Assembly (NCBI GenBank): GCA_038087875.1
Contig: CM075995.1
Span: 8,248,001-8,312,000, forward strand
Direction of reading: 5' to 3'
DNA: 64,000 nt
From: Malacoraja senta
Lineage: Eukaryota
Every line of letters starts with the position of its first letter. Within the stretch, counting starts at the first letter, position 1. Of the stretch, positions 12,392 through 43,470 are shown in pieces. The notes under the pieces were generated by a model that saw only the letters and a program-made list of their open reading frames with translations, did no database searches and was not told the DNA's origin. A program made the position numbers and the translations under genes.

Positions 12392-12579
12392 ACCGGAGCA
12401 CCCAGAGAAAACCCAGGCAGGTCACGGGGGAAACGTACAAACTCCGTACGGACAACTCCCATAGTCGGGATGGAACCCGGGTCTCTGGCGCAGTGAGGCA
12501 GCAACTCTACCGCTGCACCACCGTGCTGCCCTCCAGGTTATCGCACATTCGGCAGAAACACGGTGAATCGCCCACCTAC

Positions 12580-12955
12580 CTTCCAATACATTCCTGGCGG
12601 ATGCCAACAGCAGAGCCATGCCCATGTTTGCAGTGGCAGCATCCACCACAGAAGGAGTCTTGGCCACCTTCACCCCAAAACTGAAGATCAAAGGCAGGTC
12701 ATAGTGGTCCACACCAACGCCATTGTTCACGATCACCTTCAGGGCAGGGAGCGAGCGGAGAAGCTTCTCATCTACGATGGGATAAAACTCCCACATGAAA
12801 ATAACCTGGATTTTATTTTCAAGCTGCTCCTTGTTCTTCAGGAATTCTTCCATGGTGGCGACTTCGAAATGCTCCCTGATAACGTCTGCACATCTTCGTG
12901 GAACGCCCTGCGTCTCGCTGAGTGCGGAGACCAGAACACAGGCACGATCACTCAT
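12580..12955 (-). CDS. Glyoxylate/hydroxypyruvate reductase-like dehydrogenase, coding exon 1
   Basis: MSDRACVLVS..VDEKLLRSLPALKVIVNNGVGVDHYDL..GVKVAKTPSVVDAATANMGMALLLASARNVLEG; donor gtaggt at 12579; a polypyrimidine/AG acceptor lies 3 nt before the ATG. Confidence 0.93.
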
Positions 12956-13075
12956 CGTCTGTCGGCGCAGGGAAAAGAAAGGGTAGCTGTTTACAGTTTA
13001 GTTTATTGTCACGTGTACCGAGTTACAGTGAAATGCTTTTTGTCGCATGCTATCCAGTCAGCAGAAAAACAAAGC

Positions 13076-17721: not shown

Positions 17722-18108
17722 TTTTGTGACATATTCACAAATACACACATATATATGTATCATACACACATATGTATCACATATATATATAGATACATAT
17801 ATACCATATATACATATAATGATATATATGTGTGTATATGATATATATATATATATATGTGTATTTGAGTGTATTTTTACACACACTGAACTTTGTTTCT
17901 CGTTTACTAAACTGTTTGTGACATATTCACAAATACACACATATATATGTATCATACACACATATGTATCACATATATATATATAGATACATATATACCA
18001 TATATACATATAATGATATATATGTGTGTATATGATATATATATATATATGTGTATTTGTGAGTGTATTTTTACACACACTGAACTGTTTCTCATTTACT
18101 AAACTGTT
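17722..18108. repeat. Tandem duplicate of an about 190-bp (AT)/(AC)-rich unit; third copy at 25089-25250
   Basis: GTGACATATTCACAAATACACAC...TTTACTAAACTGTTT occurs twice in tandem. Confidence 0.9.
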
Positions 18109-21100
18109 TACAGAGTACTATGTTTACATGTTCACTCTTGACTCTTAGTGATACAGTGTGGAAATAGACCATTCGGCCCAACTTGCCCACACGGGCCAAC
18201 ATGTCCCAGCTACACTAGTCCCACCTGCCTGCGTTTGGTCCATATCCCTCCAAACCTGTCCTATCCATATGTACGTGTCTCACTGTTTCTTGAATGTTGT
18301 GATAGTACCTGCCTCAAAATAAAGATAATTTTAGCAGCCACAAATTTATCTAGTTGAGTTACTGTGAGGCAGACAGAAACCGCTGCTGAGTCACGGTGAC
18401 AGCGGTCATGGTGGCGCAGCGGTAGAGTTGCTGTCTTACAATGCTGGCAGCGTCGGAGACCCGGGTCCAATCCCGACTGCGGGTGCTTGTCTGTGCGGAG
18501 TTTGTATGTTCTCCCCGTGACCCGCGTGGGTTTTCTCCGAGATCTTCGGTTTCCTCCCACACTCCAAAGACGTACATGTTTGTAGGTTAATTGGCTTGGT
18601 AAATGTAAAAATTGGTCCTAGTGGGTGTAGGATAATTCCAGTATAGTCCCTGGTGGACTCTTCGGGAGTGATGACCACAAGACAAGACAAGTCCACAGTA
18701 TCCCAGTGAAATAAAGGAATAGAGATTTCAAATTCCACAGACATGTCACTGGAGTTTAGTTTAGTTTCGTGATACAGTACGGAAACAGGACCTTTGGCCC
18801 ACCGAGTCCGCGCCGACCAGCGATCCCCGCACACTAACACTATCCTACACACACTCGGGACAATTTACAATTTTTTGACCAAAGCCAATCAGCCTACTAA
18901 CCTGTAGGTCTTTGGAGTGTGGGAGGAAACTGGAGCAACTGGAGAAAACCCACGCAGTCACAGGGGGAATGTACAAACTCTGTACAGACAGCATGCATGG
19001 TCAGGATGGAACCCGGGTCGCTGGCGCTGTGAGGCAGCAACTCTACCGCTGCGCCACCGTGCAAAGTAAAACCTTGCTAGTTGAAGAAAGTTGTGTGAGA
19101 AACTAAAGAACTGTGCCTACGGGGAAATCAGGGCTTGAGAATTTCTGGCTGGCAATAACAAAGTTATGGGTAGGAAGCAATTGCAGATGCTGGTTTACAC
19201 CGAAGATAGACACAAAATGCTGGAGTTACTCAGTGGGACAGGCAGCATCTCTGGAGAGAAGGGTCTTGACCATAAAAGTCACTCATTCCTTCTCTCCAGG
19301 GATGCTGCCTGTCCCGCTGAGTTACACCAGCATTTTGTGTCTATCTTTTATGGTGTTCAGTACTGTGTTTACAGAGCTGTTATACTTCTGCAAGAAAGGA
19401 TTTCATTGTTCTGTGTCCACACATATTAAACACTGAAGATTGACAAAAAAATGCTGGAGTAACTCAGCGGGACAGGCAAAATTTCTGGAGGGAAAGAATG
19501 GGTGACTTTTCCAGTCGATATTCTTCTTTAGACTGAGAGTCAGGGGAGAGGGAGACACAGAGATATGGAAGTGTTTCAGAGAGAACTGCAGATGCTGGAA
19601 AAATATGATATGAAAGGTGAGGTGTGAAAACGAGAGATCAAAGGGGATGGTGTTTAAGGAAAATCATTCACACACTCTCTTTTTCACACAGAGAATTGTG
19701 AGTGTGGAATTCTCTGCCTCAGAGGGCAGTGCAGGCAGGTTCTCTGGACACTTTCAAGAGAGAGCTAGATAGGGCTCTTAAAGATAGTGGAGTGAAGGGA
19801 TATGGGGAGAAGGCAGGAACGGGGTAATGATTGTGGATGATCAGCCATGATCACATTGAATGGCGGTGCTGGCTCAAAGGGCCGAATGGCCTAGGCCTGC
19901 ACCTATTGTCTATTGTCTATCATTGTTATTTGGGGGAAGGTGACAACGAAGCATACAAAGTCAAAGTCAGGAGGACTGTCAGACTGGTCGGAGAACAAGG
20001 ATGGGGGAGGGATGGAGTTGCAATGCAAGGGTTACTTGTAGTCATTCATACCACTGGGGTGTAAGCTGCCCAAGTGAAATACGAGGTGCTGTTCCTCCAA
20101 TTTGCGTTGGGCCTCACTCTGACATTCTTTGGTGTAAACCAGCATCTGCAGTTCCTTCCTACATAATTCAGCCATATTGATGTTTTCAACTAATTACCCC
20201 GATATTTACAAAAATACAGATTTAATTGAATGTATCACGTTGTGTAATCAAATATATTGAAATTTAAAATGCAAAGTAAGGTGCCTCTGACTAAAAGGAA
20301 TGCAAATATGACCCACTGATTACAAATATAACTCTACAAGGGAGAAAACATTGAGACATTGTGTCTGGAATTTAGAGTAGTAATCAATACCAATGTTAAT
20401 CCCTAAAATTAGAAAGTCTGAAGAATGTCGCCCATTCCTTCTCTCCAGAGATGCTGCCTGTCTCGCTGAGTTACTCTGGCATTTTGTGTCTATCTTCGTT
20501 TTAAACCAGTGTCAGCAGTTCCTTCCTACACATTTCGTCAACTCCTGAAACTTCTTTTGCATGTTGCCAAAAGTTCAGTTTAAATGGTTTATGAAACGTC
20601 TAATAATTAGGGCGGCACGGTGGTGCAGCGGCAGAGTTGCTGCCTTGCAGCGCTGGACACCCGGGTTTGATCGTGACCACGGGTGCTGTCTGTACGGAGT
20701 TTGTACGTTCTCCCTGTGACCTGCTGGGGTTTTTTTCGGTTGCTCCAGTTTCTTCCCACACTGCAAAGACGTAGGTTAATTGGCTTTGGGAAAATTGTAA
20801 AATAGTCCTTAGTGTGTGCAGGATAGTGCTAGTGTCCAGAGATCGCTGGCTGGCTCGGGGTCAGTGGGCCAAAGTGCCTGTTTCTGTGCTGTTTCTCTAA
20901 ACTAAACTAATGCAGAAATCAGAGCAAGAGGCTGGGCTCCAGAAACAGACACATGCACAGTGTTGTTCTGTGTTATGTAGAGGGAGACACAGGGATATGG
21001 AAGGGTAAAGTGTGAAAGGTCAATGAAACACTCGTGACTCTGGGATAATGGTGCCTAATTACTACAGGATGACCCCCCCCCCTCCCCCTTAAATACAGGC

Positions 21101-21170
21101 TGATCCATGGGTTTGTGTGATGGGAGATCATGTCTCACGAATTTGATTGAGTTTTTGAAGAAGTAACTAA

Positions 21171-22001
21171 GTCCGCCTAGTCTGGTTGTCTTTTTATCTT
21201 TTTTATTTTTAGTCTGTTTAAAGTATGGTTTTTTTTGTATTTTATGTGGGGGAGGAGGGGAGGGTAATAGGGAATCCGTCCTTCAGTCACTTCCTGGCGA
21301 GGATGCGACTATTATCCGAGGCGCGCCTTCGCCCACCTCCTCGCGGCCTACCTACTGGATTGGCGCGGCCTTTCCTGCTGGGGCTAGACCATAGCTTCAG
21401 CAGCAGCGGCGCAGCGCTGGATATATCCCGGAGCGGGCGATGCCTTACCTGGGATCGCCGTTTGAAGTTCCGGAGTGTTGAGCCTGCTGCATCAACATCG
21501 CAGAGCTGTGGTTTGCGGAGTTCCCAGCGCGGGCGGTGCTGACCAACATCGCAGAGTCCTGGAACCCTTTGCCGGGGGCCGCCAGAGTTGAATCTCCGCC
21601 AGCTCTGCCTGTGGACTTCGGGAGCCGCAGACTCCGGTGGGAGGTGGCCGATTCAGAGGTCCAGGCCGCTGAGGGCATTCTTCCGTTCGACGTCGGAGTT
21701 CCATCGTTCCCGGCGAGAGGGCCTGAACACCGGGCCGCCCGTAACGGCGACTGCGGGAGGCTCGGGAGGCCACGACCATGGGTGAACATCGGGGAACATC
21801 AGCGAGGAGGTTGACTGGACTTTCGTTCCTTCCCTCACAATGGGGAACTTTGGTGCCGCTGTTGGGATGTTTGTGTTGTGGACTATTGTTTTGTTCTGTG
21901 TTTTAGTCTTTACATTTTTTAAATTCTTTTGACTGTATGGGAAATAGCATTTCGTTGTCTCTTACTTGAAGACAATGACAATAAATTGAATCAAATCAAA
22001 T
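21171..22001 (+). mobile_element. GC-rich non-autonomous retroelement with Rex/Babar-like 3' end
   Basis: Ends ATTTCGTTGTC..GACAATGACAATAAA plus (TCAAA)n; the empty site is visible in the inverted copy at about 24430. Confidence 0.75.
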
Positions 22002-22447
22002 CAAGAAGGTTGACAAGGGTAAGACCATCTTCTTCTTAGGCCCCCCGGTGTATGGGCCATGGGTGTCTCCAGGGTTGGAGGACGCCAGTCCGTGACTTTG
22101 TTTAACGTGGGGAGACTGGTGCACAGACAGCCACCACACGGTCCTTGACAGATCTGGGTCAGGATTTAGTGGTATGGAGTCCAACACGACTGGAGAACCG
22201 TTTCTGCTGCAGCCTTCATCCGCCTTCCCAGCTGTTGTGACGCTCCACTAAGGTCAGCCATCGTCGTCCGCCTGTTCCACCGTTGAGGTCTTGGTTGGAT
22301 TGCTCTTTGTCAGAGACCTCCCCCTCGAAACATTGTCTATTTCCTTCGCTCCATAGATGCTGCCTCATCCGCTGAGTTTCTCCAGCATTTTTGTCTATCC
22401 ATATGTACGTGTCTCACAGTTTCTTGAATGTTGTGATAGTACCTGCC

Positions 22448-22491
22448 CTGGGGCAGATCGACTATTAAACTAATGAAGCTTAAGCTTCAGG
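22448..22491 (+). mobile_element. hAT-like element end A (second copy at 28725-28770)
   Basis: TACCTGCC then CTGGGGCAGATC(G/T)AC..AAGCTTAAGCTTCAGG; the other end with the same 8-mer is at 34072-34120. Confidence 0.65.
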
Positions 22492-22594
22492 AAACCTAAT
22501 CCCAGAAGCGACTTTAGTCCAGATATTCTTCGGATTTAAATCGGAATTCCGATTTTGTTTGTTTTCCTAGAAATGAATCTGATTTTTCACCTGG

Positions 22595-23100
22595 ACTAAA
22601 CCCCTCGCCTCTTGTCTCGAATAAACTTCACCTCACACTTAAACCTCAACTCACTAAACCTTGTCTCGACTAAACCTCCCACCTCACACCTAATCCCCGC
22701 CTCGACTAATGGCCGCCTCCCTCCCTCCCTCCCTCCCTCCCGCTCGCTCCCACGGGGAGGGGCTGCAGCCGCCACGGGCGGGACTCGGTCTCGACGTCAA
22801 CGTCTGCGCGCGTGCGCCCCTCCCACCCCCACCGCCTCTCTCGGGCAGTGCGCCTGCGCCGCTCTCCGCGCTCGGCCCCGCCCCCCCTGGTTGGAGCCGT
22901 TGGTTCCGCTGAGCGCGAGCGGGAGAGAGGCGGCGATTATTCGAGGCGCGGATTAGGTGTCAGGTGTCGTCGTGAGGTGTCGTAGAGGTGAGGGGATTAG
23001 TCGAGGTGTAAGTGTGTAGGTGAGGGGATTAGTCGAGGTGTAAGTGTGTACGTGAGGGGATTAGTCGAGGTGTAAGTGTAGGTGAGGGGAAGTGAGTGTA
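22595..23100. promoter_or_regulatory. CpG-rich promoter-like module flanked by inverted repeats, copy 1
   Basis: GACGTCA, GCGCGTGCGC/GCGCCTGCGC, GCCCCGCCC and CCGTTG motifs; inverted arms about 22680-22726 and 22921-22966; 32-bp minisatellite at 22988-23090. Confidence 0.5.
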
Positions 23101-23949
23101 GGTGAGGTGAGGAGAAGTGGGTGTCTGAGCTCAGGAAGGGAGACCAAGGTGCTGCTGAAGGAGATGAGACCACTGCCTTCTGTGGCAGAGAATTCCACAC
23201 ATTCACAACTCTGGGTGAAAACGTTTTTTCTCATCTCAGTGCTAGGTAAAGAGACATTTCGGGTAACATTTTTTGTAAAGATTTTTTTAGCTGTATGAGG
23301 CCATTTATTGAAACATATAAGATTATTAAGGGTTTGAACACGCTAGAGGCGGGAAACTCGTTTCCAATGTTGGGGGAGTCCAGAACCAGGGGCCACAGTT
23401 TAAGAATAAGGGGGAGGCCATTTAACGGAGATGAGGAAATACTTTTTCACACAGAGAGTTGTGAACCTGTGGAATTCTCTGCCTCAGGGCAGTGGAAGCC
23501 AATTCTACACAGGTTCAGTTTCAACTTTCTTTAAAGCACAGAATTATGTATGACACAAGAAGAGGACTTTACACATGTTTAAGCACTCCACCTGTCCCTA
23601 TCCCCTGCTGTCTTCTTGCAGCTTTGCGATGTATTTCTGACACAATGGTCCATTCTACATTTGCTTAGCAACATCTGTTTTGATCTCTCGTTTTCACACC
23701 TTATCCTTCCATATCTCTGTCTCCCTTTCTCCTGACTCTCAGTCTGAAGAAAGGTCTCTACTGGAAAGGTCACGCATTCCTTCTCTCAAGAGACGCTGCC
23801 TGTCCCGTTGGGTTACTCCGGCATTTTGTGTCTGTCTTCGGCATAAACCAGCATCTGCAGTTGTTTCCTACACACTGTATCGAACTAGCTCGCTCTTCTT
23901 GGACGCCATGCAATCTGACCTTCCGGAGCAGCTTACTATGTTGAATGTT

Positions 23950-24405
23950 ATGGAAGGCCGTCCTGAAGTCCGTATGGACAATGCATATGGTCTCCGTGGA
24001 TTGTCACCTTGTCGTGGTGGAGAAGCTTGTCTCCTGAGATCCTGAGAGCGATGCCGCTTGGAGCTATGCTCCTGGTAGGGCCACCCATGGCAGTAAGGTC
24101 GAGGGGGAGGACTCTGAAAAAGAGCAATCCAACCAAGACCTCAACGGTGGAACAGGCAGAGGACGATGGCTGACCTTAGTGGAGAGTCACAACGGCTGGG
24201 AAGGCGGATGAAGGCTGCAGCAGAAAAGGGTCCCCGGTCGTCTTGGACTCCATGCCACTGGATCCTGACCCGGATCTGTCAAGGACCGTGTGGTGGCTGT
24301 TTGTGTACCAGTCTCCCCACGTTAAACAAAGTCACGTACTGGTGTCCTCAAACCCTGGAGACACCCATGGTCAGCCCTGACCGAGGGGGGCCTAAAAAGA
24401 AGATG
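23950..24405 (+). mobile_element. RTE (Expander/Rex3-like) non-autonomous element; partial inverted copies at 22025-22325 and 28300-28602
   Basis: CACCTTGTCGTGGTGGAG..GCTCCTGGTAGGG.CACCCATGGC resembles RTE 5' UTRs; (AAG)n tail. Confidence 0.55.
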
Positions 24406-25073
24406 GTCTTACCCTTGTCAACCTTCTTGGTTACTTCCTCAAAAACTCAATCAAATTCGTGAGACATGATCTCCCATCACACAAACCCATGGATCAGCCT
24501 CTATCTAAGGGGGGAGAATTCTTCCTGTAGTAATCAGACACCATTGTCCCAGAGTCAAGAGTGTTTCATTGACCCTTCACACTTTACCCTTCCATATCCC
24601 TGCGTCTCACTCTGTACATAACACAGAGCATGAGCAGATAACTGTGCATATGCCTGTTTTCGGAGCCCAGCCTCTTGCTACGATTTCTGCATTAGTTCAG
24701 TTTAGTTTAGTTTAGAGAAACAGCGCGGAAACAGGCACTTCCGCCCACTCAGCCCGCGCCGGCGAGCGATCACTGCACACGAACGCTATCCTGCACACAC
24801 TAGGGACTATTTTACAATTTTACCAAAGCCAATTAACCTACGTCTTTGGAGTGTGGGAGGAAACTGGAGCAACCGGAGAAACCCCACGCAGGTCACGGGG
24901 AGAACGTACAAGCTCCGTACAGATCGAACCCGGGTCTCCGGCGCTGCAAGGCAGCAACTCTGCCGCTGCACCACCATGCCGCCCTAATTATTAGACATGT
25001 TCCATAAAGAATTTAAACTGAACTTTCGCCAAAGTGCAAAAGAAGTTACAGGAGTTGACAAAATGTGTAGGAA
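24100..25073 (-). repeat. Inverted copy of the duplicated segment, left part
   Basis: Reverse complement of 20520-21170 joined directly to 22002-22325. Confidence 0.9.
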
Positions 25074-25088
25074 ACATAGAAACATAGA

Positions 25089-28000
25089 GAGATATTCACA
25101 AATACACACATATATATGTATCATACACACATATGTATCATATACCAGATATATATACATATAATGATATATATGTGTGTATATGATATATATATATGTG
25201 TATTTGTGAGTATTTTTACACAAACAACTTTTTTTCTCGTTTACTAAACTTTACAGAGTACTATGTTTACATGTTCACTCTTGACTCTTGAGTGATACAG
25301 TGTGGAAACAGGCCCTTCGGCCCAACTTGCCCACACGGGCCAACATGTCCCAGCTACACTAGTCCCACTTGCCTGCGTTTGCTCCATATCCCTCCAAACC
25401 TGTCCTATCCATATGTACGTGTCTCACTGTTTCTTGAATGTTGTGATAGTACCTGCCTCAAAATAAAGATAATTTTAGCAGCCACAAATTGATCTAGTTG
25501 AGTTAACTATAGCGTTACTGTGAGGCAGTCAGGAACCGCTGCTGAGTCACGGTGACAACGGTCACGGTGGCGCAGCGGTAGAGTTGCTGCCTTATAGCGC
25601 TGGCAGCGTCGGAGACGGGTTCGATCCCGACTACGGGTGCTGTCTACGGAGTTCGTACGTTCTCCCCGTGACCCGCGTGTGTTTTCTCCGAGATCTTCGG
25701 TTTCCTCCCACACGCCAAAGACGTACAGGTTTATAGGTTAATTGGCTTGGTAAATGTAAACATTGGCCCTAGTGGGTGTAGGATTATTCCAGTATAGTCC
25801 CTGGTGGACTCTTGATGACCACAAGACAAGACAAGTCCACAGTGTCCCAGTGAAATAAAGGGATAGAGATTTCAAATTCCACAGACATGTCACTAGAGTT
25901 TAGTTTAGTTTCGTGATACAGTACGGAAACAGGACCTTTGGCCCACCGAGTCCGCGCCGACCAGCGATCCCCGCACACTAACACTATCCTACACACACGA
26001 GGGACAATTACATTTTTTTTTACCAAAGCCAATTAGCCTACTAACCTGTACGTCTTCCAAGTGTGGGAGGAAACTGGTGCACCCTGAGAAAACCCATGCG
26101 GTCACAGGGAGAATGTACAAACTCTGTACAGACAGCATGCATGGTCAGGATTGAACCCGGGTTTCTGGCTCTGTGAAAGTAGGGCTTGAGAATTTCATGC
26201 TGGCAATAACAAAGTTATGGGTCGGAAGCAACTGCAGATGCTGGTTTACACCGAAGATAGACACAAAATGCTGGAGTAACTCAGTGGGACAGGCAGCATC
26301 TCTGGAGAGAAGGGTCTCGACCAAAAAAAGTCACTCATTCCTTCACTCCAGGGATGCTGCCTGTCCCGCTGAGTTACTCCAGCATTTTGTTTCTATCTTT
26401 TATTGTGTTCAGTACTGCTTTATCAGACCTGTTACACTGCTGCAAGAAAGGATTTCATTGTTCTGTGTACACACATATTAAACACTGAAGATTGACAAAA
26501 AAAATGCTGGAGGAAAGAAAGAACTGCAGATGCTGGAAAAATATGGAAGGTGAGGTGTGAAAACGAGAGATCAAAGGGGATGATGTTTAAGGAAAATCAT
26601 TCACACACTCTCTTTTTCACACAGAGAGTTGTGAGTTTGTGGAATTCTCTGCCCCAGAGGGCAGTGGAGGCCGGTTCGCTGGATACTTTCAAGAGAGAGC
26701 TAGATAGGGCTCTTAAAGATAGCGGAGTGAAGAGATATAGGGAGAAGGCAGGAACGGGGTACTAATTGTGGATGATCAGCCATGATCACATTGAATGGCG
26801 GTGCTGGCTCGAAGGGCCAAATGGCCGAGGCCTGCACCTATTGTCTATTGTCTATCATTGTTATTTGGGGGAAGGTGACAACGAAGCATACAAAGTCAAA
26901 TTTAGTCAGGAGGACTGTCAGACTGGTCGGAGAACGAGGATGCATGGTGGGATGGAGTTGCAATGCTCAGTCGGCCAAAGTCCCTGATTCTGCGCTGTTT
27001 CTCTAAACTAAACTAATGCAGAAATCAGAGCAAGAGGCCGGACTCCAGAAACAGACACATGCACCATATTGTTCTGTGTTATGTACAGAGGGAGACACAG
27101 TGTATTGAAGGGTAAAGTGTGAAAGGTCAATGAAACACTCTTGATTCTTGATTCTTGACTCTGGAACAATGGTGCCTGATTACTACAGGAAGGTTTCCCC
27201 CCGATACGGGCTGGTCCATGGATTTGTGTGATGGGAGATCATGTCTCACGAATTTGATTGAGTTTTTGAAGAAGTAACCAAGTCTGCCTACAGTCTGTTT
27301 GTCTTTTTTATTTTAGTCTGTTTAAAGTATGTTTTTTTTCCTTTCTATTTTATGTGGGGGAGGGGGTAGGGTAAGGGGGAAACCATCCTTTAGTCACTTC
27401 CTGGCGAGGATGCAACTATTATTCGAGTCGCGCCCTCGCCCCCCTCCTTGCGGCTTACCTACTGGATTGGACCAGAGCATCAGCAGCGGCAGCGCAGCGC
27501 TGGATACTCTCTTTTTCACTTTTGTGAGTTTGTGGAATTCTCTGCCCCAGAGGGCAGTGGAGGCCGGTTCGCTGGATACTTTCAAGAGAGAGCTAGATAG
27601 GGCTCTTAAAGATAGCGGAGTGAAGAGATATAGGGAGAAGGCAGGAACGGGGTACTAATTGTGGATGATCAGCCATGATCACATTGAATGGCGGTGCTGG
27701 CTCGAAGGGCCAAATGGCCTAGTGTCTCACTTGGGATCGCCGTTTGAAGCTCCGGAGTGTTGAGCCTGCTGCATCAACATCGCGGAGCTGTGTTTTGCAG
27801 AGCTCCCAGCACGGGCGGTGCTGACCAACATTGCGGAGTCCTGGGACTCTTTGCCGGGGGCCGCCAGCGTTGAATCTCCGCCAGCTCGGCCTGTGGACTT
27901 CGGGAGCCGCAGACTCCGGAGGGAGGTGGCCGATTCAGAGGTCCAGGCCACTGAGGACGTTCTTCTGTTCGACGTCGGGGTTCCATCGTTCCCGGCGAGA

Positions 28001-29260
28001 GGGCCTGAACATCGGGCCGCCCATAGTGGCGACTGCGGGGGCCTCGGGAGGCCACGACCACGGGTGAACATCGGGGAACATCAGCAAGGAAGTTGACTGG
28101 ACATTCGTTCCTTCCCTCACAGTGGGGAACTTTGGTGCTGCTGTGGGGATGTTTGTGTTGTGGACTATTGTTCTGTGTTTTCGTTTTTTAAATTTTTTTA
28201 TTCGTATGACTGTATGGGAAATAGCAATTTGTTGCCTCTTACTTGAAGACAATGACAATAAATTGAATCAAATCAAATCTAGAAGGTTGACAAGGGTAAG
28301 ACCATCTTCTTCTTAGGCCCCCCTTGGTCATGGCCATGGGTGTCTACAGGGTTGGAGGACGCCAGTCCGTGACTTTGTTTAACGTGGGGAGACTGGTGCA
28401 CAGACAGCCACCCCACGGTCCTTGACAGATCTGGGTCAGGATCCAGTGGTATGGAGTCCAAGACGACCGGAGAACCGTTTCTGCTGCAGCCTTCATCCGC
28501 CTTCCCAGCCGTTGTGACGCTCCACTAAGGTCAGCCATCGTCCTCCGCCTGTTCCACCGTTGAGGTCTTGGTTGGATTGCTCTTTGTCAGAGACCTCCCC
28601 CTCGAAACATTGTCTATTTCCTTCGCTCCATAGATGCTGCCTCACCCGCTGAGTTTCTCCAGCATTTTTGTCTATCCATATGTACGTGTCTCACAGTTTC
28701 TTGAATGTTGTGATAGTACCTGCCCTGGGGCAGATCTACTATGAAACTAATGAAGCTTAAGCTTCAGGGAACCAAATCCCAGAAGCAACTTTAGTCCAGA
28801 TATTCTTCCGATTTAAATCGGAATTCCGATTTTGTTTGTTTTCCTAGGAATCTGATTTTTCACCTGGACTCAACCCCTCGCCTCTTGTCTCAACTAAACT
28901 TCACCTCACACTTAAACCTCAATTCACTAAACCTTGTCTCGACTAAACCTCCCACCTCACACCTAATCCCCGCCTCGATTAATGGCCGCCTCCCTCCCGC
29001 TCGCGCTCCCGCGGGGAGGGGCTGCAGCCGCCACAAGCGGGGTGGGCGGGGCTCGGGCTCGACGTCAACGTCACTGCGCGCATGCGCCCCCCGCAACCGA
29101 CTCTCTCGGGCAGTGCACCTGCGCCGCGCTCGGCCCCGCCCCCCTGGTTGGAGCCGTTGGTTCCGCTGAGCGCGAGCGGGAGAGAGGCGGCGATTAGTCG
29201 AGGCACGGATTAGGTGTCAGGTGTCGTCGTGAGGTATCGTAGAGGTGAGGGGATTATTCG
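25089..29260 (+). repeat. Segmental duplication, copy 2 (with internal deletions)
   Basis: Direct copy of 17920-22998, including the GC-rich element (27282-28278), hAT end A and the CpG module. Confidence 0.92.
28865..29260. promoter_or_regulatory. CpG-rich promoter-like module, copy 2
   Basis: GACGTCAACGTCA, GCGCATGCGC (NRF1-type), GC box; inverted arms 28952-29008 and 29168-29223. Confidence 0.5.
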
Positions 29261-29261
29261 A

Positions 29262-31384
29262 AATCCATATTTGAAATCCACATGTTTATAGTTGGTATTG
29301 GAGCGTTTTTCCAGAATTTTAGGATTAACTTTTTTCCAGTTATTAACCCATATTCATTTCTTTTGGAACACATTTAGTTCTGGACTATCTTCCGTTGTTC
29401 CAAAGAAAATCCATTCTGCTTTGGGTATCAGTTTTATTTTAAATAATATTGTAAAGATTTCAAAAATTTCAATCCAAAATTTTTGAATTTTTGTACAGAA
29501 AACAAATGAGTGCGCTATAGTAGCTTCTTGAGATTGACATTTATCACAAATGGATGATACATTTGGGAACATTTTATTAATTTTTGTTTTGGAATAATAT
29601 AATCTATGTAAAATTTTAAATTGTATTAAAGTGTGTCTTACATTAATCGAACATTTATGCACGTTTAATAAATGTTCATTCCACCTTTCCTTTGAGATTT
29701 TAATAGCTAATTCTTGTTCCCAGTCTCTTCTAATACCTTCCGTAGATGGTATTTCTACATTTAAGATAATATTATACAAATATGATATTATGTTTGCTGA
29801 TTCAGCTTTTATCTGCATTGCTTCATCCAATACATCTGCTGGGCTATTATAATGATGTTTTGTATATTTTTTCAAATAGTCACATATTTGAAAATATTTA
29901 AAATATTGATTATTTCCCAGTTTATATTTTATTTGTAATTGTTGGAATGATAGTAATTTTCCAGTTTCATACAAGTCACCGAACATTTTAATTCATAGTC
30001 TATCCCATTGTATAAAAGATTTGTCTGTAATAGAGGGATTAAACGAAGGGTTATTAACTATTGGAGATAAAAGCGATAGATTTCTTAATTTTAAATTTTG
30101 TTTTATTTGTTTCCAAATTCTGATTGTACTATGTATAATTGGGTTTTTGTTATAATTTATGTTATTCAGTTTCATTGGTGAGAGGAGGATCACTCCAATG
30201 TTTCCAGAGGAGCAGTCCTCTCTCTCCATTACAATCCAGTCCACTTGCTGGGCAGAGTTGTCCATCAGTTGAATCATATTTTTAATATTTACTGACCAAT
30301 AATAATACATGAAGTTAGGGAGTGCTAAGCCCCCTAATACTTTAGCTTTGTTCAAGTGTGTTCTTTGTATTCTATGTGATTTATAGTCCCATATCAAATT
30401 AGTAATGTCTGAATCCAGTTTAAAAAAAAACTTCTTTGGTAGGTATATAGGAATCGATTGAAATAGGTATAAAATTTGTGGTAAGAAGATCATTTTTATT
30501 GCATTTATTCGGCCTATTAAAGACATCGGGAGGGTTTTCCAAAATTTAATTCGTGTATTTAATTTATTAAGTAAAGGATCAAAATTTGCTTTAAACATGC
30601 CTTGATATGTTCTAGTGATTTCAATACCCAAGTATTTAAATTTTTCTGCAGCTATTTTAAAAGGGAATTTTAAAAGATGTGTTGAGTCTTTCGGTTTTAT
30701 TGACATAATTTCACTTTTATTCCAATTTATTCTGTATCCAGAAAAAGATCCAAAGTCCTCAATTAAATTTAATATATTTGGTATAGTAATTTGAGGTTTT
30801 GTAATGTATAATAATATATCATCCGCGTATAAAGATATTTTATTATTTGAATATTTAGTATTATACCCATGGATATGTGGATGTGTTCTAATTTTTTCTG
30901 CTAACGGTTCAATTATGAGAGCAAACAACTGTGGTGATAATGAGCATCCTTGTCTATTTCCCCTTGATAGTTGAAATTTCGAGGATAATATGTTATTAGT
31001 TAATATTCTAGCTGTAGGTTTATTATATAATAGTTTAATCCATAAAATAAAATTCTCTCCCAGTTGGAATTTTTGTAATACTTTATCCATATAATTCCAT
31101 TCTACTTGGTCAAATGCTTTTTCAGCGTCCAGTGAAATAATTGATAATTCTTGTTCTTCAAATTTATGTGAGTGCATTATATTGAGTAGACGTCTCATAT
31201 TATTAGATTAATATCTCTTAGGGATAAACCCCATCTGATCTGGGTTTATTAGTTTACTAATATATTTACTTAATCTTCTAGCTAATGTTTTCGCTAATAT
31301 TTTTTGATCTGTATTTAACAATGCTATAGCTCTATATGAACCCGGTTCTTCTAAAGCTTTGTCTTTTTTAAGTATTAGTGTGAT
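29262..31384 (-). mobile_element. L1-clade LINE fragment (RT and C-terminal region), truncated at both ends
   Basis: SLDAEKAFD, RQGCSLSP, LYADD, CDKC..HSFVFC; frameshifted; paralogous to 59575-63366. Confidence 0.95.
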
Positions 31385-34079
31385 CATAAAGAATTTAAAC
31401 TGAACTTTTGCCAAAGTGCAAAAGAAGTTACAGGAGTTGACAAAATGTGTAGGAAGGAACTGCAGACGCTGGATTAAAATGAAGGTAGACACAAAATGCT
31501 GGAGTAACTCAGCGGGACAGGCAGCATCTCTGGAGAGAAGGAATGGGTGATGTTTCGGGTCGAGACCCTTCTTCAGACTTTCTAATTTTAGAGGTTAACA
31601 TTGATATTGATTATTACTCAAAATTCCAGACACAATGTCTCAATGTTTTCTCCCTTGTAGAGTTTTATTTGCAATCAGTGGGTCCTATTTGCATTCCTTT
31701 TAGTCAGAGACACCTTCCTTTGCATTTTAAATTTCAATATATTTGGTTACACAACTTGATACATTCAATTAAATCTGTATTTTTTTATAAATATCGAGGT
31801 AATTAGTTGAAAACACCAATATGGCTGAATTATGTAGGAAGGAACTGCAGATGCTGGTTTACACCAAAGAATGTCAGTGAGGCCCAACGCAAATTGGAGG
31901 ATCAGCACCTCATATTTCTCTTTGAGCAGCTTACACCCTAGCAGTATGAATGACTTCAAGTAACCCTTGCATTGCAAATCCATCCCTCCCCCATCCTTGT
32001 TCTCTGACCAGTCTGACAGTCCTCCTGACTAAATTTGACTTTGTATGCTTCGTTGTCACCTTCCCCCAGATAACAATGATAGACAATAGATAATAGACAA
32101 TACGTGCAGGCCCATGCCATTCGGCCCTTTGGGCCAGCATCGCCCTCTGAGGCAGAGAATTCCACAGACTCACAACTCTGTGTAAAATAGAGAGTGTGTG
32201 AATGATTTTCCTTAAATATCGTCCCCTTTGATCTCTCGTTTTCACACCTCACCTTCCATATCATATGTTTCCAGCATCTGCAGTTCTTTCTGAAACACTT
32301 CCATATCTCTGTCTCCCTCTCCCCTGTCTCAGTCTGAAGAAGGGTCTCGACTGGAAAAGTCACCCATTCCTTCTCTCCAGAAATGCTGCCTGTCCCGCTG
32401 AGTTACTCCAGCATTTTTTTGTCAAACTTCAGTGTTTAATATGTGTGGACACAGAACAATAAAATCCTTTCTTGCAGCAGAATAACAGGTCTGTAAACGC
32501 AGTACTGAACACAATAAAAGATAGACACAAAATGCTGGTGTAACTCAGCGGGACAGGCAGCATCCCTGGAGAGAAGGAATGAGTAACTTTTATGGTCAAG
32601 ACCCTTCTCTCCAGAGATGCTGCCTGTCCCACTGAGTTACTGCAGCATTTTGTGTCTATCTTCGGTGTAAACCAGCATCTGCAGTTGCTTCCTACACATA
32701 ACTTTGTTATTGCCAGCCTGAAATTCTCAAACCCTGATTTCCCTGTAGGCACAGTTGTTTAGTTTCTCACATAACTTTCTTCAATATGGCAAGGTTTTAC
32801 TTTGCACGGTGGCGCAGCGGTAGAGATGTTGCCTCACAGCGCCAGAGACCCTGCTTCCATCCTGACCATGCGTGCTGTCTGTACAGAGTTTGTACGTTCT
32901 CCCTGTGAGCTGCGAGAGTTTCTTCGGGTGCTCTGGTTTCCTCCCGCACTCCAAAGACGTACAGGTTAGTAGGTTAATTGGCTTCGGTAAAAAAGTGTAA
33001 ATTGTCCCTAGTGTGTGTGGGATAGTGTTAGTGTGCGGGGATCGCTGGTCGGCGCGGACTGGGTGGGCCTAAGGGCCTGTTTCCGTACTGTATCTCGAAA
33101 CTAAACTAAAGTAATATAAACTCCAGTGACATGTCTGTGGAATTTGAATTCTCTATCCCTTTATTTCTCTGGGATACTGTGGACTCAGCACCGGTTTCTG
33201 TCTGCCTCACTGTAATCCAACAGTCAACAATTAACTCAACAAGATAATAGACAATAGGTGCAGGAGTAGGCCATTTGGCCCTTCGAGCCAGCACCGCCAT
33301 TCAACGTGATCATGGCTGATCATCCCCAATCTACCCCGTTCCTGCCTTCGCCCCATATCCCTGACTACGCTATTTTAAAGAGCCCTATCTAGCTCTCTCT
33401 TGAAAGCATCCAGAGAACCTGCCTCCACCACCCTCTGAGGCAGAGAATTCCACAGACTCACCATTCTCTGTGAGAAAAAGTGGTTTCCTCGTCTCCTTCC
33501 AAAATGGCTTACCCCTTATTCTTAAACTGTGGCCCCTGGTTCTGGACTCCCCCAACATCAGGAACATGTTTCCTGCCTCTAGCGTGTCCAAACCCTTAAC
33601 AATCTTACATGTCTCAATGAGATCTCCTCTCATCCTTCTAAACTCCAGAGTGTACAAGCCCACTGCTCCATTCTCTCAGCATATGACAGTCCCGCCATCC
33701 CGGGAATTAACCTTGTAAACCTAAGCTGCTCTCCCTCAATACCAAGAATGTCCTTCCTCAAATTAGGGGACCCAAAACTGCACACAATACTCCAGGTGTG
33801 GTCTCACTCGGGCTCTGTACAATTGCAGAAGGACCTCTTTGCTCCTATATTTGATTCCTCTTGTTGTAAAGGCCAACATGCCATTTGCTTTCCTCACTGC
33901 CTGCTGTACCTGCATGCTTACTTTCATAGACTGATGTACAAGGACCCCCAGATCCCGTTGTACTTCCCCTTTGCCCAACTTCACGCCATTTAGATAGTAA
34001 TCTTGCCTTCCTGTTTTTGCTACCAAAGTGGAAAGAAAATTTGTGGCTGCTAAAATTATTTTTAATCTTGAGGCAGGTA
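31385..34079 (-). repeat. Inverted copy of the duplicated segment, right part (interrupted by CR1 at 33245-34030)
   Basis: Reverse complement of 18306-20592, lacking the SINE at about 18393-18692. Confidence 0.9.
33245..34030 (-). mobile_element. CR1 3' fragment
   Basis: QRDLGVLVH..RPHLEYCVQFW..EFRRMRGDLIE. Confidence 0.9.
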
Positions 34080-34513
34080 CAGTGGTGGACCTACATTTTT
34101 GGGGCCCTGAAGCTTGAACTGTTATGGGGCCCTTCGCAACCAGCACCGAGGTCCTGGGTAACCACTGTTATCTTCTGCAATGGGGTTGTTCCACGACAGA
34201 TCACCACAAAATTTTAATTTCTGTCATAAATGTTAATAGTGTTTTAAATTATTTATAATTATTTTTATATTAAATATATTTAGAATGAAACATCCTTAAT
34301 TTGAATATTTTTTTGTTTACGGCTACTTTAATAACCTTTTAATTTTTATCTGAACTATTATTTTGTATTGACTATCATACAGTAGTCCCAACATTTTTAA
34401 GCAATGTGGACTAAGCATTGAAAAAAAGTAGGAAGTATTGGCCGGGGGTCCAGGAGGCTGACTAGGCCCTCGGCAGGGTCCAGGGGCAGCGCCCCCGGTG
34501 GGGGTTCAGGGGA
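34080..34513. mobile_element. hAT-like element end B
   Basis: GGCAGGTA (reverse complement TACCTGCC) then CAGTGGTGGACCTAC..GGGGCCCTGAAGCTT. The inner boundary is approximate. Confidence 0.65.
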
Positions 34514-36337
34514 AATGCCTGCCACAGTCGGTTCGTATTGGTGGAAATGTGTCAGACTCGATAACAATCAGCATGGGAGCACCTCAAGGCTGCGTGCTCA
34601 GCCCCCTGCTGTACTCACTCTATACTCATGACTGCGTAGCCGGTCATAGTGCGAACTCCATCATCAAGTTCGCTGACGACACCACTGTTGTGGGATGTAT
34701 CACTGATGGGGATGAGTCAGAGTATAGAAGAGAGATCGAGCAACTGTCCATATGGTGCCAGCACAATAACCTAGCCCTCAACACCAGCAAAACCAAGGAA
34801 CTGATTGTGACTTGGAAGGAGTAGGATGGGGACCCACAGTCCCATTTATATCAACGATCGATGGTTGAAAGAGTCAAGAGCTTCAAATTCCTGGGCGTGC
34901 ACATCTCTGAAGATCTTTCCTGGTCCGAAAACACTGATGCAATTATTAAGAAAGCACATCAGCGCCTCTACTTCCTGAGAAGATTACGGGAGAGTCGGTT
35001 TGTCAAGGAGGACTCTCTCTAACTTCTACAGGTGCACAGTAGAGACATGCTGACTGGTTGCATCGTGGCTTGGTTCGGCAACTTGAACACCCTGGAGAGG
35101 AAAAGACTACAAAAAGTGGTAAACACTGCCCAGTCCATCATCGGCTCTGACCTCCCTTCCATCGAGGGGATCTATCGCTTTCACTGCCTCAAAAAGGCTG
35201 GCAGTATCATCAAGGACGCACACCATCCTGGCCACCCACTCATCTCCCTGCTACCTTCAGGTAGAATGACAGGAGCCTGAAGACTGCAACGACCAGGTTC
35301 AGGAATAGCTGCTTCCCCACATCTATCAGGCTAATTAAACTTGGCTCGGACATAACTCTGAACATTAATAGCCCATTTTACTTCGGAGTCACGTGAGTGA
35401 CTACGTGAAGAAGGGCCGTCAGCCCGCATGCGCGTCATTACGTCTACCGAATTGCGCTACGACTGGCTGGCGGCGCGTCGCTCCACCAGCGGTAAGTTTC
35501 AATTCCTACAGGTAAGTTTTCAAACTTACTTTTCAGTTTGTCCTTTTGTTGCAGGAATCTCTCTTCGCAGAGTTTTCCTGTTGGATATAGTAATACGCAG
35601 CAAAACCCGGACGGACCGCGTGGAAACCTATTATGGACTGCGGGATGCCGGCTACGGACCGTGGAAGTGCGGGGTAGCGGGTGGCTATCGGGTTTGCTGC
35701 CTGAGTCGCTGACAGTGCGGTCAGCGACTCCCAAGGGCTTTTTAAATTCGGGCGATATCCGGACGGGCCGCGGGGATATTACAGTCCGCGGGAATGCCGG
35801 GCACAGACCGCGGGAGAGCGGGTAGCCGGTGGCCGTCGGGTTCGCTACCCGAGTCGCTGACAGTGCGGTCAGTGACTCCGACTTCGGCAGCCCAAAAGGT
35901 AGGCAACCATACGGAGTCGGAGAGGCCTGGGCTGGAGCCCAGCCAGGAGGGTTCCCCTCCGACTACAAGGGTACGTCCACGGATGTTTAACACATCCTGA
36001 TATGGTGGACCATATCAGCGCAGGTCCACGGGGGCCTATGGCAGCGCCTGTGCACAGGGCTGCTCACTAATCTCCCTCTCTGTGGAGAGGAGTACGAAAG
36101 GTCAATGTGTGACTGTCTCCTACCCCGGAAGTATGTCCATGGCACATACTGCAATTCATCAGAGTTCCCCTCACGTTACAAGATAAACACCCTATGCCTC
36201 CAATGGCAGTAGCAGGAATAGTGTATTCTTTTAAAAGTATGGCTATACAGGGTGGGCACCATTATGCTGGTATCCTCTGACTAATTTATCAGATCAGGAG
36301 TTTGTTCTTGGTATCATAATGTTCTTGGTATCATAAT

Positions 36338-37338
36338 GGAAGTGGCGGCGCTGGCGGCGCTGTTAATCGGCTGCGGCTCGCCTGCAGTCCGTCTGTTTTT
36401 ACTTTTTCTGTTGGTTTTTTTTGTCCTGTTTTGTTAAGTTTTAGTTTGTTGGGTTGTGTTAGGGGGGGGAGAAACATGTCCTCTGTCTCCTCCTTCGGGG
36501 GAATGCGACTTTTTTCGTGTCGTATCCCCCTTCCCTGCCTCCGTCTGCGGTGAGGCCTAATGGCGGAGCTGGCCGCCTCCATCCTGCGACCGACCCCGAG
36601 GCTACGGAGGCAGAGCCAGCCAGGAGTTACCAACGAGATGCTGGCCGTCTTCGGGCTGAGGCAGCGGTGGCCCGACTTGCTGGTGCGGCGTTCTGGCTTT
36701 CGGCGGCGGCCTGGAGCTGATGCAGCGGTGTCCGGAGCGGAGACTGCGGGACCTGGAGCTGATACAGCGGGGTCCGGAGCGGAGACTGCGGGACCTGGAG
36801 CTGATACAGCGGGGTCCAGAGCGGAGACTGCGGGACCTGGAGCTGGTGCGGCGGGGTCCGGAGTGGAGACTGCGGGACCTGGAGCTGATACAGCGGGGTC
36901 CGGAGTGGAGACTGCGGGACCTGGAGCTGATGCAGCGGGGTCCGGAGCGGAGACTGCGGGGCCTGGAGCTGGGGCGGTGGCCCGGAGCGGAGACTGCGGG
37001 ACCCGGGGCTGATGCTGTGGCTGGCCGTCTCAGAGCGGAGACGGCGTTCTGGCTTTCGACGGCGGCGACATCACCACGGAGGTCCGCTGGACTGGAGGGC
37101 GGCATCTTCGGCCTGGATCGATCGCCTCAGCGCAGAGGGAGAACAAGGAGGGAAGAGATGGAGACTAAGACTTTGCCTCCATCACAGTGAGGGTGTGCTT
37201 GGTGAACTCACTGTGGTGGATGTTTAATTTGTGTTTATTGTATGTTTTGTTATTATTGGTTCTGTGTATGACTGCAGGCATCACAATTTCGTTCAGACCG
37301 AAAGGTCTGAATGACAATAAAGGAAACTTAACTTGAAT
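36338..37338 (+). mobile_element. GC-rich non-autonomous retroelement nested in DIRS
   Basis: 5' GGAAGTGGCGGCG; 3' TTTCGTTCAGACCGAAAGGTCTGAATGACAATAAA; homologous to 56086-57043. Confidence 0.8.
36708..37020. repeat. 42-bp GC-rich minisatellite, about 7 copies
   Basis: Unit GGACCTGGAGCTGATACAGCGGGGTCCGGAGCGGAGACTGCG. Confidence 0.95.
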
Positions 37339-38893
37339 ATGTATCATCATGCTAATTTAGTTATGTTAATAGAGAGAAATTACAAGCTATATTATTTATC
37401 ACTTACACCAATAAATTGTGTAATGGAATCGGACCTGCCATGGCGTTATAGATCCCTGACTTGGAAAGCCTTGTTCAGCAATACCTATCAGTCACCTGTG
37501 CGAGCACACATGGTGGCGTCATGGTAATTCCGCTCATTAAAGGGACTATGGAAGATTCTTCCCCCAGACGCCGACTTTTTTCACATGAATAAAGTGATCA
37601 AATCTCTGATTTAACTGGGATGGGCGTCTTCATTCATGTAAACATCTTCGCCCATGACAAATAACTGGCAGGTTTTTTTCCAGCATTTCTCTCTCTATGT
37701 CTGGCGTATGGGGGCCAGAGGCGCTCCAATCCTTCCCTGTAGACTGCATTGGCATCGGAAAGGTGCAGGACTCGGAGTCACTAGCACGTGCAGCCTGTTT
37801 GGTTATGAATATACCAACAGAGCATCGATTTGCACAGCTAGTCCTGGCAGCTGCTGAAGGAAGCAATCTGACAACCCCAACTCAGAGTGAGTGCCAAGTC
37901 TTGGGCATCTATGTCAGATAAGATTGCGACTCGTCGCAGTCAAAGAACGCTCCATCCTAAGGCATGTCAGCAGCAGCTCCTGGTTCAGGGTTGCAAATTT
38001 CCTCCCACTCAAATGAGGAGTGGTAGAGGGTGCTACAGAAGAGTGCACATGTGCCTGAAGTGACACCTGTTTCAGGGTTGCAATTCCTCCCACTCGGTTG
38101 AACGTAGTGATGGAGATGGTGCTAAAATACATGCACACATGCCTGAGACAGCTCCTGGGTCAGGTTGCATAAGTCCTCCCATTCGGATGTATGAAGGATG
38201 AAGATGGTCGAGGCAGCTCCTGGTTAAGGTTGCATAAGTCCTCCCATTCGGACGGATGAAGATGGAGCCATATATATTATGCCTCCTGTCACGGATGCAT
38301 ACACAGGCAGTTCAAGTCACATGCCTGCAGCTGCCTTGGTTCAAGGTTTGCATTACCTCCCATCCAAAAGACTATGGGAGATGGTGTCGCAAAACATGCT
38401 TGGTACAGAAGCATGCACAGACAATTTGAGGATACGGATGGTACACCTGGTTCAGGTGCAATTACTCCCACCGTAAAAGAGTGTCAACGGTTAGTATGGA
38501 TTACCTCCAAACAGGAACCCGAATATGACTATGTGCCGGGATCCCATGCTTAATGCATAATGTACGACGATCGCATGAGGGGAAGCGGTGTGCTTTGCCT
38601 CTAAAATTGCTGCTCCGTCGGGGACGGACTAGCCACTACAAGAGAAGTTGGCGCAGCATCAGTGATCTAAAGGAAATGACGAACATGTGGGCAGAGTCTG
38701 CGAATGAAACTTTGCTGAAACTCCAGCAAAGGTAAGGGACCTGGAGTTAGAGACACTGGTAAGTAGGTCTCGTTATTTACCTCCATAAATTAAAACCGAA
38801 AAGGTAAGCTTCACCCCGTGACTGGAGGACCATCCACTGCATGGTCGAATCAAATCTTTGATTCAGAGTCTGAGAAGACCTTACCTAGGGTTC

Positions 38894-39760
38894 GGACTGT
38901 CTGGTCGTACGTTGATCATGATCACTGAGGCCTGGAGAGATAGTACCAAGAAATTGTGCATCCCCCATATCATTAGTGGGAAGTGTTCTGTTTACAGTCC
39001 AACATACGTATGACACGGCACGTATAACATGTTTTTGTAATTCCTCTCTAAACTAAATTTACGAGGGATAGAGTTTGTGCCAGTAGTGCCTTGTCGTCAT
39101 ACTTGTTGCTGGGATCGGGACATCACTCTTGTCGGATCTCACCCACTGATAGCCAGATTTATGAAACGTATCTTCAACTCAGAATCTCTCAGGCACAGGG
39201 ACTCAGAGATATGGGATGTTGACATTGTGCTGACGCTGTTTCGCCAATGGGCTCCAACTACATCCCTGTCCTTGGTTAAACTCACTTACAAAGAGGTTAT
39301 GCTCATGGCGCTGGTTACAGCGCAACAGATCCAGTCGTTGCATAAGCTATGACTGGACAAGATGGTTACATCTGTAGACTATAACATTTTATGTTATGAC
39401 TTAGCAAGCAGAGCAGACCAGGGGCATCAGGTTTCAAACTAGAGGTTGGCATACCCTATGGACCTTCGGTTGTGTGGTGTCACACATCTACAACAGTTTG
39501 TTAAGGTCACCAAGAGCCTTAGAGGCTCTGAACTAGCTTGGTTTGTTAGTTACATAAAACCTCATAAAAAGGTATCAGTACAGACCACCTCCAGGTGATT
39601 AAAACGGGGTCTGGCTTGTGCAGGAGTGATCACTGGCAGTCTCAATCTCACTCCACCAGGGCTGCAACAACATCAGCAGCTAGGGTTATGGACGTTCCGC
39701 TGGACCACATCCTAGCGGCTGCAGGATGGTCTAACGAACAAACCTTTCCCATCATTTGAC
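38894..39760 (+). pseudogene. DIRS tyrosine recombinase pseudogene
   Basis: ITEAWRDSTKK, HPLIARFMKRIF..WDVDIVL..LMALVTAQ, HSTRAATTS..ILAAAGWS; stops and frameshifts. Confidence 0.85.
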
Positions 39761-43126: not shown

Positions 43127-43470
43127 GAAGGGTCGGAGCGAATGACGGGCCCCGAACAGCGGCAGCAGTGGCCGCGAACAGCGGCTCCATCTCCTCCTCC
43201 CGCCCCCCGCCCGCCCTGATAAGGGCCTCTGCTTGTAAATCCTCTAACAGCGATAACCGCTTTCCAAACAAACCCTCCAGCACTCCGAGGCCGGGTGGAA
43301 GGAGTGAAGGAGGGGGAGGCCTCGGAGTGCGGGAGGGTTTGTTTTGAAAGCCCGTTAGTGGGTTTACAAGCAGAGGCCCTTATCAGGGCGGGCGGGAGGA
43401 GGAGGAGATGGAGCTGCTGTCGCGGCCGCTGCTGCCGCTGTGCAGGGCCCGTCATTCGCTCCGACCCTTC
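43127..43470. repeat. About 344-bp imperfect GC-rich palindrome
   Basis: GAAGGGTCGGAGCGAATGACGGGCCC.. pairs with ..GGGCCCGTCATTCGCTCCGACCCTTC; purine loop at about 43292-43317. Confidence 0.92.

Follow-up and report, generated by a model that had tools for sequence, protein, structure and literature searches.

The window, the whole 64-kb stretch of Malacoraja senta DNA analysed here, holds two ends of a hAT-like transposon, A and B, that carry the same octamer and lie apart, B being inverted together with its flank, which raises the question of whether the element drove the inversion or was merely split by it. As the original prediction had it, the octamer TACCTGCC was found by self-BLAST of the window in two empty sites of the form GATAG-TACCTGCC-TCAAAATAAAG (octamers from 18306 and 25450), and the coordinates also proved correct for the two places where a left flank and TACCTGCC precede end A (A from 22448 and 28725) and for the inverted end B, which starts at 34080, reads inward on the plus strand and is followed by TACCTGCC and the right flank on the minus strand. 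End B is separated by 11,632 bp from A1 and by 5,355 bp from A2.

With six occurrences in the window against about 1.5 expected, TACCTGCC is uninformative by itself, and the target lies inside a repeat, a 3' tail that we take to be of CR1 type and that is present in multiple copies in the window. The 45-bp left flank of A (the A2 copy was aligned, and A1 has the identical 45 bases) agrees at 44 of 45 positions with each empty site, against 29-37 of 37-45 aligned bases for five other copies of this tail. Similarity to the left of A is limited to these 45 bp, a limit that had gone unnoticed in the original prediction. The B-side flank passes into the non-repetitive sequence that lies behind the empty site; beyond a CR1 insertion it remains collinear with the empty-site copy for about 2 kb at 89-92%. 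Judged by these alignments, the flanks of A and B are site-specific despite the repeat target, and TACCTGCC is a true 8-bp target site duplication (TSD). A 9-bp duplication was dismissed, since the extra common G is part of the terminal repeat.

Aligned without gaps from the first base, the termini of A and B agree at 10 of 15 positions, a decayed terminal inverted repeat (TIR) that bears out the resemblance claimed earlier; two of the five mismatches would be compatible with CpG decay on opposite strands. The interiors do not overlap and, the terminal motif aside, have nothing in common; neither terminus occurs a second time in the 64-kb window. End B probably does not stop at 34513 but extends beyond a nested LINE/DIRS insertion as far as 40610, a continuation suggested by one joint and one motif. 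The frames over A, B and the B continuation gave no Pfam match, and Rfam gave no match at gathering thresholds. Like non-autonomous hAT elements and MITEs, this element has an 8-bp TSD, a short imperfect TIR and a non-coding body; unlike them, the copy is split and decayed, with no transposase tied to it. Its ends may be Arthur1-like and its group Tip100. Its TSD and TIR agree with the 8-bp TSDs and the 10-25-bp TIR class given for hAT elements in PMC3942097. The best explanation of these features is an old, non-coding, non-autonomous hAT-like element.

That A and B belong to a single hAT-like family as its opposite termini, in line with the original proposal, was supported by eight short elements (L001-L008) in unrelated metagenome contigs from organisms other than that of the window. 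Over the terminal 43-45 bases they share 88-93% identity with the window element, whose interior matched none of the eight. Both A-type and B-type ends are present in four of the eight loci, which represent two independent sites in those other organisms; the remaining four, from one site, are without a clear 3' end. An 8-bp duplication surrounds L007 and L008 (8/8 matching positions) and L006 (7/8), these three being one site, as well as L002 (6/8). Because in these relatives an 8-bp duplication encloses an A-type end joined to a B-type one, A and B are the two termini of one family. L002 also holds a candidate remnant that may resemble a transposase C-terminus, and it showed no Pfam match and no transposase relative. 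A presumed transposase match, P0001, was false and due to repetitive sequence, and P0002 is a further piece of the same sort of decayed element. The A and B end patterns had no match in viral contigs or prokaryote genomes.

Contig mapping on 28400-34600 drew about 0.9-1.0 million contigs in each run, most of them LINEs and SINEs. In all four runs a variant of the family was recovered, by 19-50 contigs per run at 34177 and by 6-10 at 28771, and at least two X21 contigs stop at 34080 and continue into other sequence. The family is dispersed and multi-copy, with varying flanks, in related genomes. All contigs counted at 28771 differ from the window letter in three of the four runs, so that the A2 junction is unconfirmed by contigs. 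Neither an A-to-B joint nor an empty-site joint was among the 15 joints listed, of about 18,900, which carries no weight either way, and gaps in X21 coverage were likewise given none.

The empty sites are, on alignment, paralogues of the filled site within a duplicated block (Table 1). C4 (24099-25073, minus strand) is homologous to C1 20523-21171 and 22005-22328, and in clean alignment blocks C3 and C4 show one difference in about 70 shared bases, as against seven to C1; they are one paralogue. C1 and C2 are sisters, because a SINE-bearing segment and insertion X are common to both and they have the fewest differences (97 in 1598 columns, compared with 119 and 137 to C3/C4). An old duplication, 7-9% diverged, left two copies, one of them empty and the other filled; the second empty site and the second end A came from a later tandem duplication of 7.1 kb, 6% diverged. 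No transposon end was found at the other joints of the duplications supplying the empty sites. A single hybrid-element event duplicating the empty site was rejected by reasoning: it would place only one terminus next to the target on the duplicated chromatid. Mixed letters were observed in the mapped contigs, at 31665 in both X3 and X19 and also at 31685 in X3, part of the depth having the C1 letter and part lacking it, a faint hint that both paralogues may be present in relatives.

Table 1. Positions in the window of the target sites, transposon ends, block copies and nested insertions
Feature	Positions	Strand	Remarks
5'-truncated CR1-type 3' tail holding target site	18148..18317	-	multi-copy in window
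Empty target TACCTGCC, paralogue U1, copy C1	18306..18313	+	
Empty target TACCTGCC, copy C2	25450..25457	+	
45-bp left flank remnant and TSD before A1	22395..22447	+	TSD 22440-22447
45-bp left flank remnant and TSD before A2	28672..28724	+	TSD 28717-28724
Second TSD copy TACCTGCC, adjoining B	34072..34079	-	
End A1, 5'-type terminus	22448..23169	+	interior of about 720 bp, non-coding and CpG-rich in part; inner boundary approximate
End A2	28725..29265	+	truncated by L1 fragment
End B, 3'-type terminus at 34080	34080..34520	-	441 bp non-coding interior; contigs from other family copies end at 34080
Probable B continuation past nested insertion	40482..40610	-	suggested by joint
Copy C1: empty site between its left and right flanks, followed by 45-bp left flank, TSD and A1	17723..23169	+	self-BLAST, alignments
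Copy C2: later tandem duplicate of C1	25089..29265	+	7.1-kb offset, internal deletions
C3: inverted right flank of filled site	31385..34071	-	homologous to C1 18314-20594; CR1 insertion 33247-34032
Inverted distal right flank of filled paralogue	23507..25073	-	contains C4; non-C4 part putative
Insertion X, common to C1 and C2	21172..22004	+	absent from C4; groups C1 with C2
L1-type LINE fragment, truncated at both ends	29266..31384	-	81% to 59677-61801; RVT_1
Later nested insertions: Rex1-type LINE holding DIRS-like element	34521..40481	+	LINE 34521-35374 and 40330-40481; DIRS-like 35375-40329
CR1 piece P5, broken on 3' side	23305..23506	+	reference positions 413-619; candidate left breakpoint 23506
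CR1 piece P3, 3' tail intact	40611..40758	-	reference positions 640-784; candidate right breakpoint 40758

The locus is probably best read as one ordinary insertion followed by an inversion of about 4 kb through host repair. The non-autonomous element would have entered paralogue U2 by cut-and-paste, doubling TACCTGCC and leaving U1 empty, after which a deletion would have joined U1 to the final 45 bp of the U2 left flank. The dead element would next have acquired a CR1 piece, and host break repair, by end joining or template switching and without transposase, may then have inverted about 4 kb between one break in this nested CR1 and one in the distal right flank of U2, so that the right flank was flipped together with the second TSD and end B. 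The empty site and end A would afterwards have been doubled by the 7.1-kb tandem duplication, and insertions of L1, CR1, Rex1-type and DIRS-like elements would have stretched the span to 17 kb. The names Rex1-type and DIRS-like are presumptive; the nested insertions gave RVT_1 and ALKBH8_N matches and were delimited by terminal repeats and joints.

The original prediction had placed an inversion breakpoint inside the element, and this part was supported, since the inversion separates A and B with one break between the two termini. If the inversion did follow an ordinary insertion, the breaks are somewhat more likely than not to lie at about 23506 and 40758, within a CR1 that is nested in the element, at a distance from the element's termini. 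P5 stops at reference position 619 and P3 begins at 640 on the opposite strand, making near-complementary CR1 halves, and they lie where the breaks must fall, P5 between A1 and C4 and P3 just past the B continuation. Against this fit, loosely complementary CR1 pairs are common (six, three of them on opposite strands, among the 17 pieces tested), and subfamily agreement is mixed, at 9 versus 13 diagnostic sites for P5 and 10 versus 2 for P3.

The further proposal that the element may have driven the inversion was not supported: the candidate breaks split a nested CR1 hundreds of bases from either terminus, and neither side has the second terminus predicted by two-copy mechanisms. Such a drive would be alternative transposition, in which a 5' and a 3' end were inserted together at TACCTGCC, the two ends coming from copies next to each other (reversed ends) or on sister chromatids (hybrid element insertion), and the inversion itself created the TSD; we consider it unlikely here. 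In PMC8225341, maize Ac/fAc reversed-ends inversions likewise have 5' and 3' hAT ends apart with the same 8-bp duplication and the flank between them inverted, the order left flank-TSD-A ... inverted right flank-TSD-B being that of this locus, and a span of about 4 kb is favourable, as frequency drops with distance. Insertion and inversion both fall in the short interval between the two duplications (7-9% versus 6% divergence), which also counts in its favour. The matching TSD inverted between the two termini is expected equally from one element split later, and this geometry without a progenitor is not diagnostic. The maize cases have a known two-element progenitor and an element at each breakpoint, as would be expected here too from PMC8225341 and PMC2775673, whereas the window holds no second terminus and the candidate break lies in nested CR1. 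Alternative transposition would therefore need two further losses or two pre-fractured donors, and would leave the fit of P5 and P3 as coincidence. Loss of the second termini is not far-fetched, as large deletions are frequent among the block copies. The locus has only a small chance of being a fossil of reversed-ends or hybrid-element transposition driven by the transposase of an endogenous vertebrate hAT; that reading would set the event in a block under duplication, a few kb upstream of the dehydrogenase gene at 12.4-13.0 kb.

Less probable again is ectopic recombination with an oppositely oriented copy about 4 kb away, with TSD exchange and loss of both distal termini. The Galileo inversions of Drosophila buzzatii, with transposon ends on both sides and a target duplication inverted across the inversion, yield the same arrangement of A, B and shared TSD, and the family is multi-copy in related genomes. 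In PMC2775673 these inversions involve a pair of homologous chimeric copies together with two exchanged TSDs; this locus has a single TSD pair, the A and B sides are two non-overlapping halves without common sequence past the terminal motif, and second termini are absent from the window. An assembly artefact or chance juxtaposition of repeats is very improbable: the region is repeat-dense, the target itself lies in a repeat, and none of the contigs or reads listed crosses the A or B junction of the locus, but the block copies differ by 5-10% and each carries insertions and deletions of its own, the flanks are site-specific, and a 148-base contig from X19, which may not be independent of the assembly, matches C3-specific 33119-33266 with one difference.

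Alternative transposition is documented, according to PMC8225341, in maize, Drosophila, Fusarium and mouse transgenes; no natural vertebrate case of an inversion of this kind was found in the open-access literature, and the transposase-driven reading, if true, would make this locus one for a known mechanism. An inverted TSD common to two separated ends does not, alone, prove alternative transposition, and the empty paralogue and the nested repeats make this a neat case in which the events can be ordered. On the preferred reading of insertion followed by host repair, the arrangement matters little, a dead transposon having been split by one of many local rearrangements, and the locus is a clear fossil, though an ordinary one, of local genome shuffling.

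The two empty sites, the left flank with its target site duplication (TSD) and end A, and the inverted end B with its TSD were all found as the original prediction had described them. The octamer TACCTGCC occurs singly in each empty site (18306 and 25450), precedes the two copies of end A, the 5'-type terminus of a hAT-like element, at 22440 and 28717, and lies as an inverted copy before end B, the 3'-type terminus, at 34072-34079. By itself the octamer could have arisen by chance; it is present six times in the window versus about 1.5 expected. The target site sits within a CR1-type 3' tail, further copies of which occur elsewhere in the window, and the 45-base stretch on the left side of A agrees with the empty sites at 44 of 45 positions but with five other tails at only 29-37 of 37-45. 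The flank of B extends into the non-repeat DNA that follows the empty site, keeping collinear with that DNA over about 2 kb (89-92%). These flank matches, rather than the octamer alone, settle the same-site origin of the A and B flanks. The termini of A and B are identical at 10 of 15 positions.

To find relatives of the element, a 25-base pattern taken from A was used, and it yielded eight metagenome loci (L001-L008) representing three insertion sites, with 88-93% identity to the first 43-45 bases of A. At one site (L006-L008) there is an element of 200 bp with a B-type terminus as its 3' end, surrounded by an 8-bp duplication (8/8 in L007 and L008, 7/8 in L006), and the 0.9-kb element of L002 likewise ends B-type, with a flanking 8-bp duplication agreeing at 6/8. 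Alignment of B with these 3' ends gave scores of 34-47, exceeding in each case the best of 200 shuffles (29-36); a clear 3' end was looked for in L001 and L003-L005, and none was seen. The terminal motif of A (first 45 bases) is strongly conserved across distant hosts, the interiors of the eight loci are unrelated to that of A, and their AT-rich contigs are probably host animal DNA. In four sequencing runs of related animals, the A and B interiors are each covered by many differing contigs, and two X21 contigs, among those listed, stop exactly at 34080 and continue into other sequence. No A-to-B joint of the host genome appeared in these contig tables, most of whose entries came from other repeats. 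No transposase was found in the A and B pieces of the window or tied to the L001-L008 relatives. PMC3942097 defines hAT elements by terminal repeats of 10-25 bp and TSDs of 8 bp, and separates their Tip group by transposase phylogeny; the name Arthur does not appear there. Judged by TSD and terminal repeats, the element appears to behave as a non-autonomous hAT. In the A interior (22585-23075 and 28953-29223), a CpG-rich core (CpG observed/expected ~1.0-1.1, GC 74-76%) is enclosed by an internal inverted repeat that matches imperfectly (~70%); this part could be the element's promoter region, and the copy at 22448 additionally holds a 32-bp tandem.

Coordinates of genes, repeats and duplicated blocks
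Feature	Position	Strand	Remarks
48-bp tandem array	86-528		9 copies; two minus-strand frames open
D-2-hydroxyacid dehydrogenase gene exon	12425-12997	-	Pfam 2-Hacid_dh; sole clear gene piece; start codon near 12955
Block copy C1	17723-23169	+	empty site; ~3-4 kb on, 45-bp flank, TSD, end A
CR1 piece P5	23305-23506	+	between end A at 22448 and C4; breaks off at reference position 619
Block copy C4	24099-25073	-	inverted; continuous with C3
Block copy C2	25089-29265	+	direct copy of C1, 7.1 kb away; empty site, then 45-bp flank, TSD, end A
Block copy C3	31385-34071	-	inverted; continuous with C4
DIRS-like element	35375-40329		complementary repeats at its termini and inside; sits within Rex1-type LINE
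CR1 piece P3	40611-40758	-	tail intact; begins at reference-copy position 640
Palindromic GC-rich stretch	43127-43470		344 bp; 80% self-complementary
Two 550-bp copies	43766-44319 and 53132-53665		93% identity; sharp TG..-type starts; 9.4 kb apart
Inverted repeat, 422 bp	51078-52236		98% identity; encloses GIY-YIG frame (just under cut-off)
L1-type ORF2	59575-63390	-	uninterrupted, 1271 aa; endonuclease and reverse transcriptase

The window (GC 45%) is animal DNA dense in repeats, with reverse-transcriptase frames of LINE type, and its repeat types would suit a cartilaginous fish; the labels CR1, L1, Rex1, DIRS, Tip100 and Arthur1 are our presumed assignments unless Pfam-backed. Upstream of the dehydrogenase exon, at a distance of 5-28 kb, is the rearranged block. 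The L1-type ORF2, accompanied by a T-rich run (59156-59197), is possibly a young copy, and the 550-bp pair possibly represents LTRs or a dispersed repeat. The 422-bp inverted repeat and the frame it encloses resemble a Penelope-like element whose terminal repeats are inverted. A short repeat of very high abundance with a CTGAAGA...GAAAC motif and a small hairpin (5438, 31576, 51179, 52135, 54049 and many decayed copies) presumably resembles the hammerhead ribozyme core of such elements; an Rfam search gave no match, and one copy folded no better than shuffles.

Two duplications account for the block copies. An older one produced two paralogues, one empty (now C1 and C2) and the other filled (45-bp flank, A, B, C3 and C4), and through a younger tandem duplication the empty site and end A each gained a second copy. 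This order follows from the segments common to C1 and C2 (a SINE-bearing segment missing in C3 and an 830-bp insertion missing in C4) and from the differing sites in six clean blocks (1598 columns): 97 for C1-C2, 119 for C1-C3/C4 and 137 for C2-C3/C4, with one block of 336 columns failing to show the C1-C2 grouping. Over about 70 common bases (31385-31457, 25003-25088), C3 shows one difference from C4 versus seven from C1, a divergence below the 6% expected from C1-C2; this match may stem from a conversion at a later time or from a long target duplication, and not mark the edge of the tandem duplication. The C4-C2 joint bears a 15-base microsatellite filler, and the start of C1 (17723-18109) a 192-bp tandem duplicate.

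End B does not seem to stop at 34513 but to run on past a Rex1-type LINE insertion that starts at 34521 (RVT_1), ends at ~40481 and is split by the DIRS-like element. The latter contains a 42-bp tandem array (36710-37013), and three plus-strand frames of 37300-39900 had no Pfam match. Judging by the joint and by a sequence motif, what follows the LINE would be B continued. Re-inverting 23507-40758 would reunite P5 and P3, with 20 bases missing, and restore the order flank-TSD-A...CR1...B-TSD-flank; the restored element is computed at ~1.35 kb without inserts, and the original inversion at ~4.1 kb. The complementarity of P5 and P3 suggests a breakpoint signature. A loose test of 17 CR1 pieces gave six complementary pairs, three of them opposite-strand, and the other two opposite-strand pairs consist of pieces with their own continuation adjoining them. 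At diagnostic subfamily sites P5 scored 9 versus 13 and P3 10 versus 2, which speaks neither for nor against the pairing.

Taken together, a single hAT-like copy was probably inserted once and split later by inversion. Such a history would leave two non-overlapping halves and no extra termini; the CR1, being nested in the element, would have arrived after the insertion, and the inversion would have broken within it. This reading is favoured because no second A or B terminus occurs within the 64-kb window, the A and B sides have no interior sequence in common, and the candidate break lies in the nested CR1. Against it, deletions are frequent in the block, so second termini could have been lost; the interval between the duplications, into which both insertion and inversion fall, is short; and a progenitor was looked for in vain. 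The original prediction that the element may have driven the inversion would correspond to alternative transposition, which yields the observed geometry. In reversed-ends or hybrid-element transposition, as described in PMC8225341 and PMC2775673, the TSD is made during the inversion and an element is left at each breakpoint, but second termini are absent from the window, and we regard this origin as unlikely. Ectopic recombination between two copies would give the same geometry and, according to PMC2775673, two chimeric copies with exchanged TSDs; the lack of a common interior and of second termini makes it quite improbable. That the arrangement is an artefact is hardly credible, since the copies differ by 5-10% and one contig from run X19 fits a C3-specific stretch at 147/148.

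The open-access literature searched yielded neither a description of this locus nor any natural case, in a vertebrate, of a hAT inversion made through alternative transposition. The split hAT-like element is a new instance of a type of event already known.
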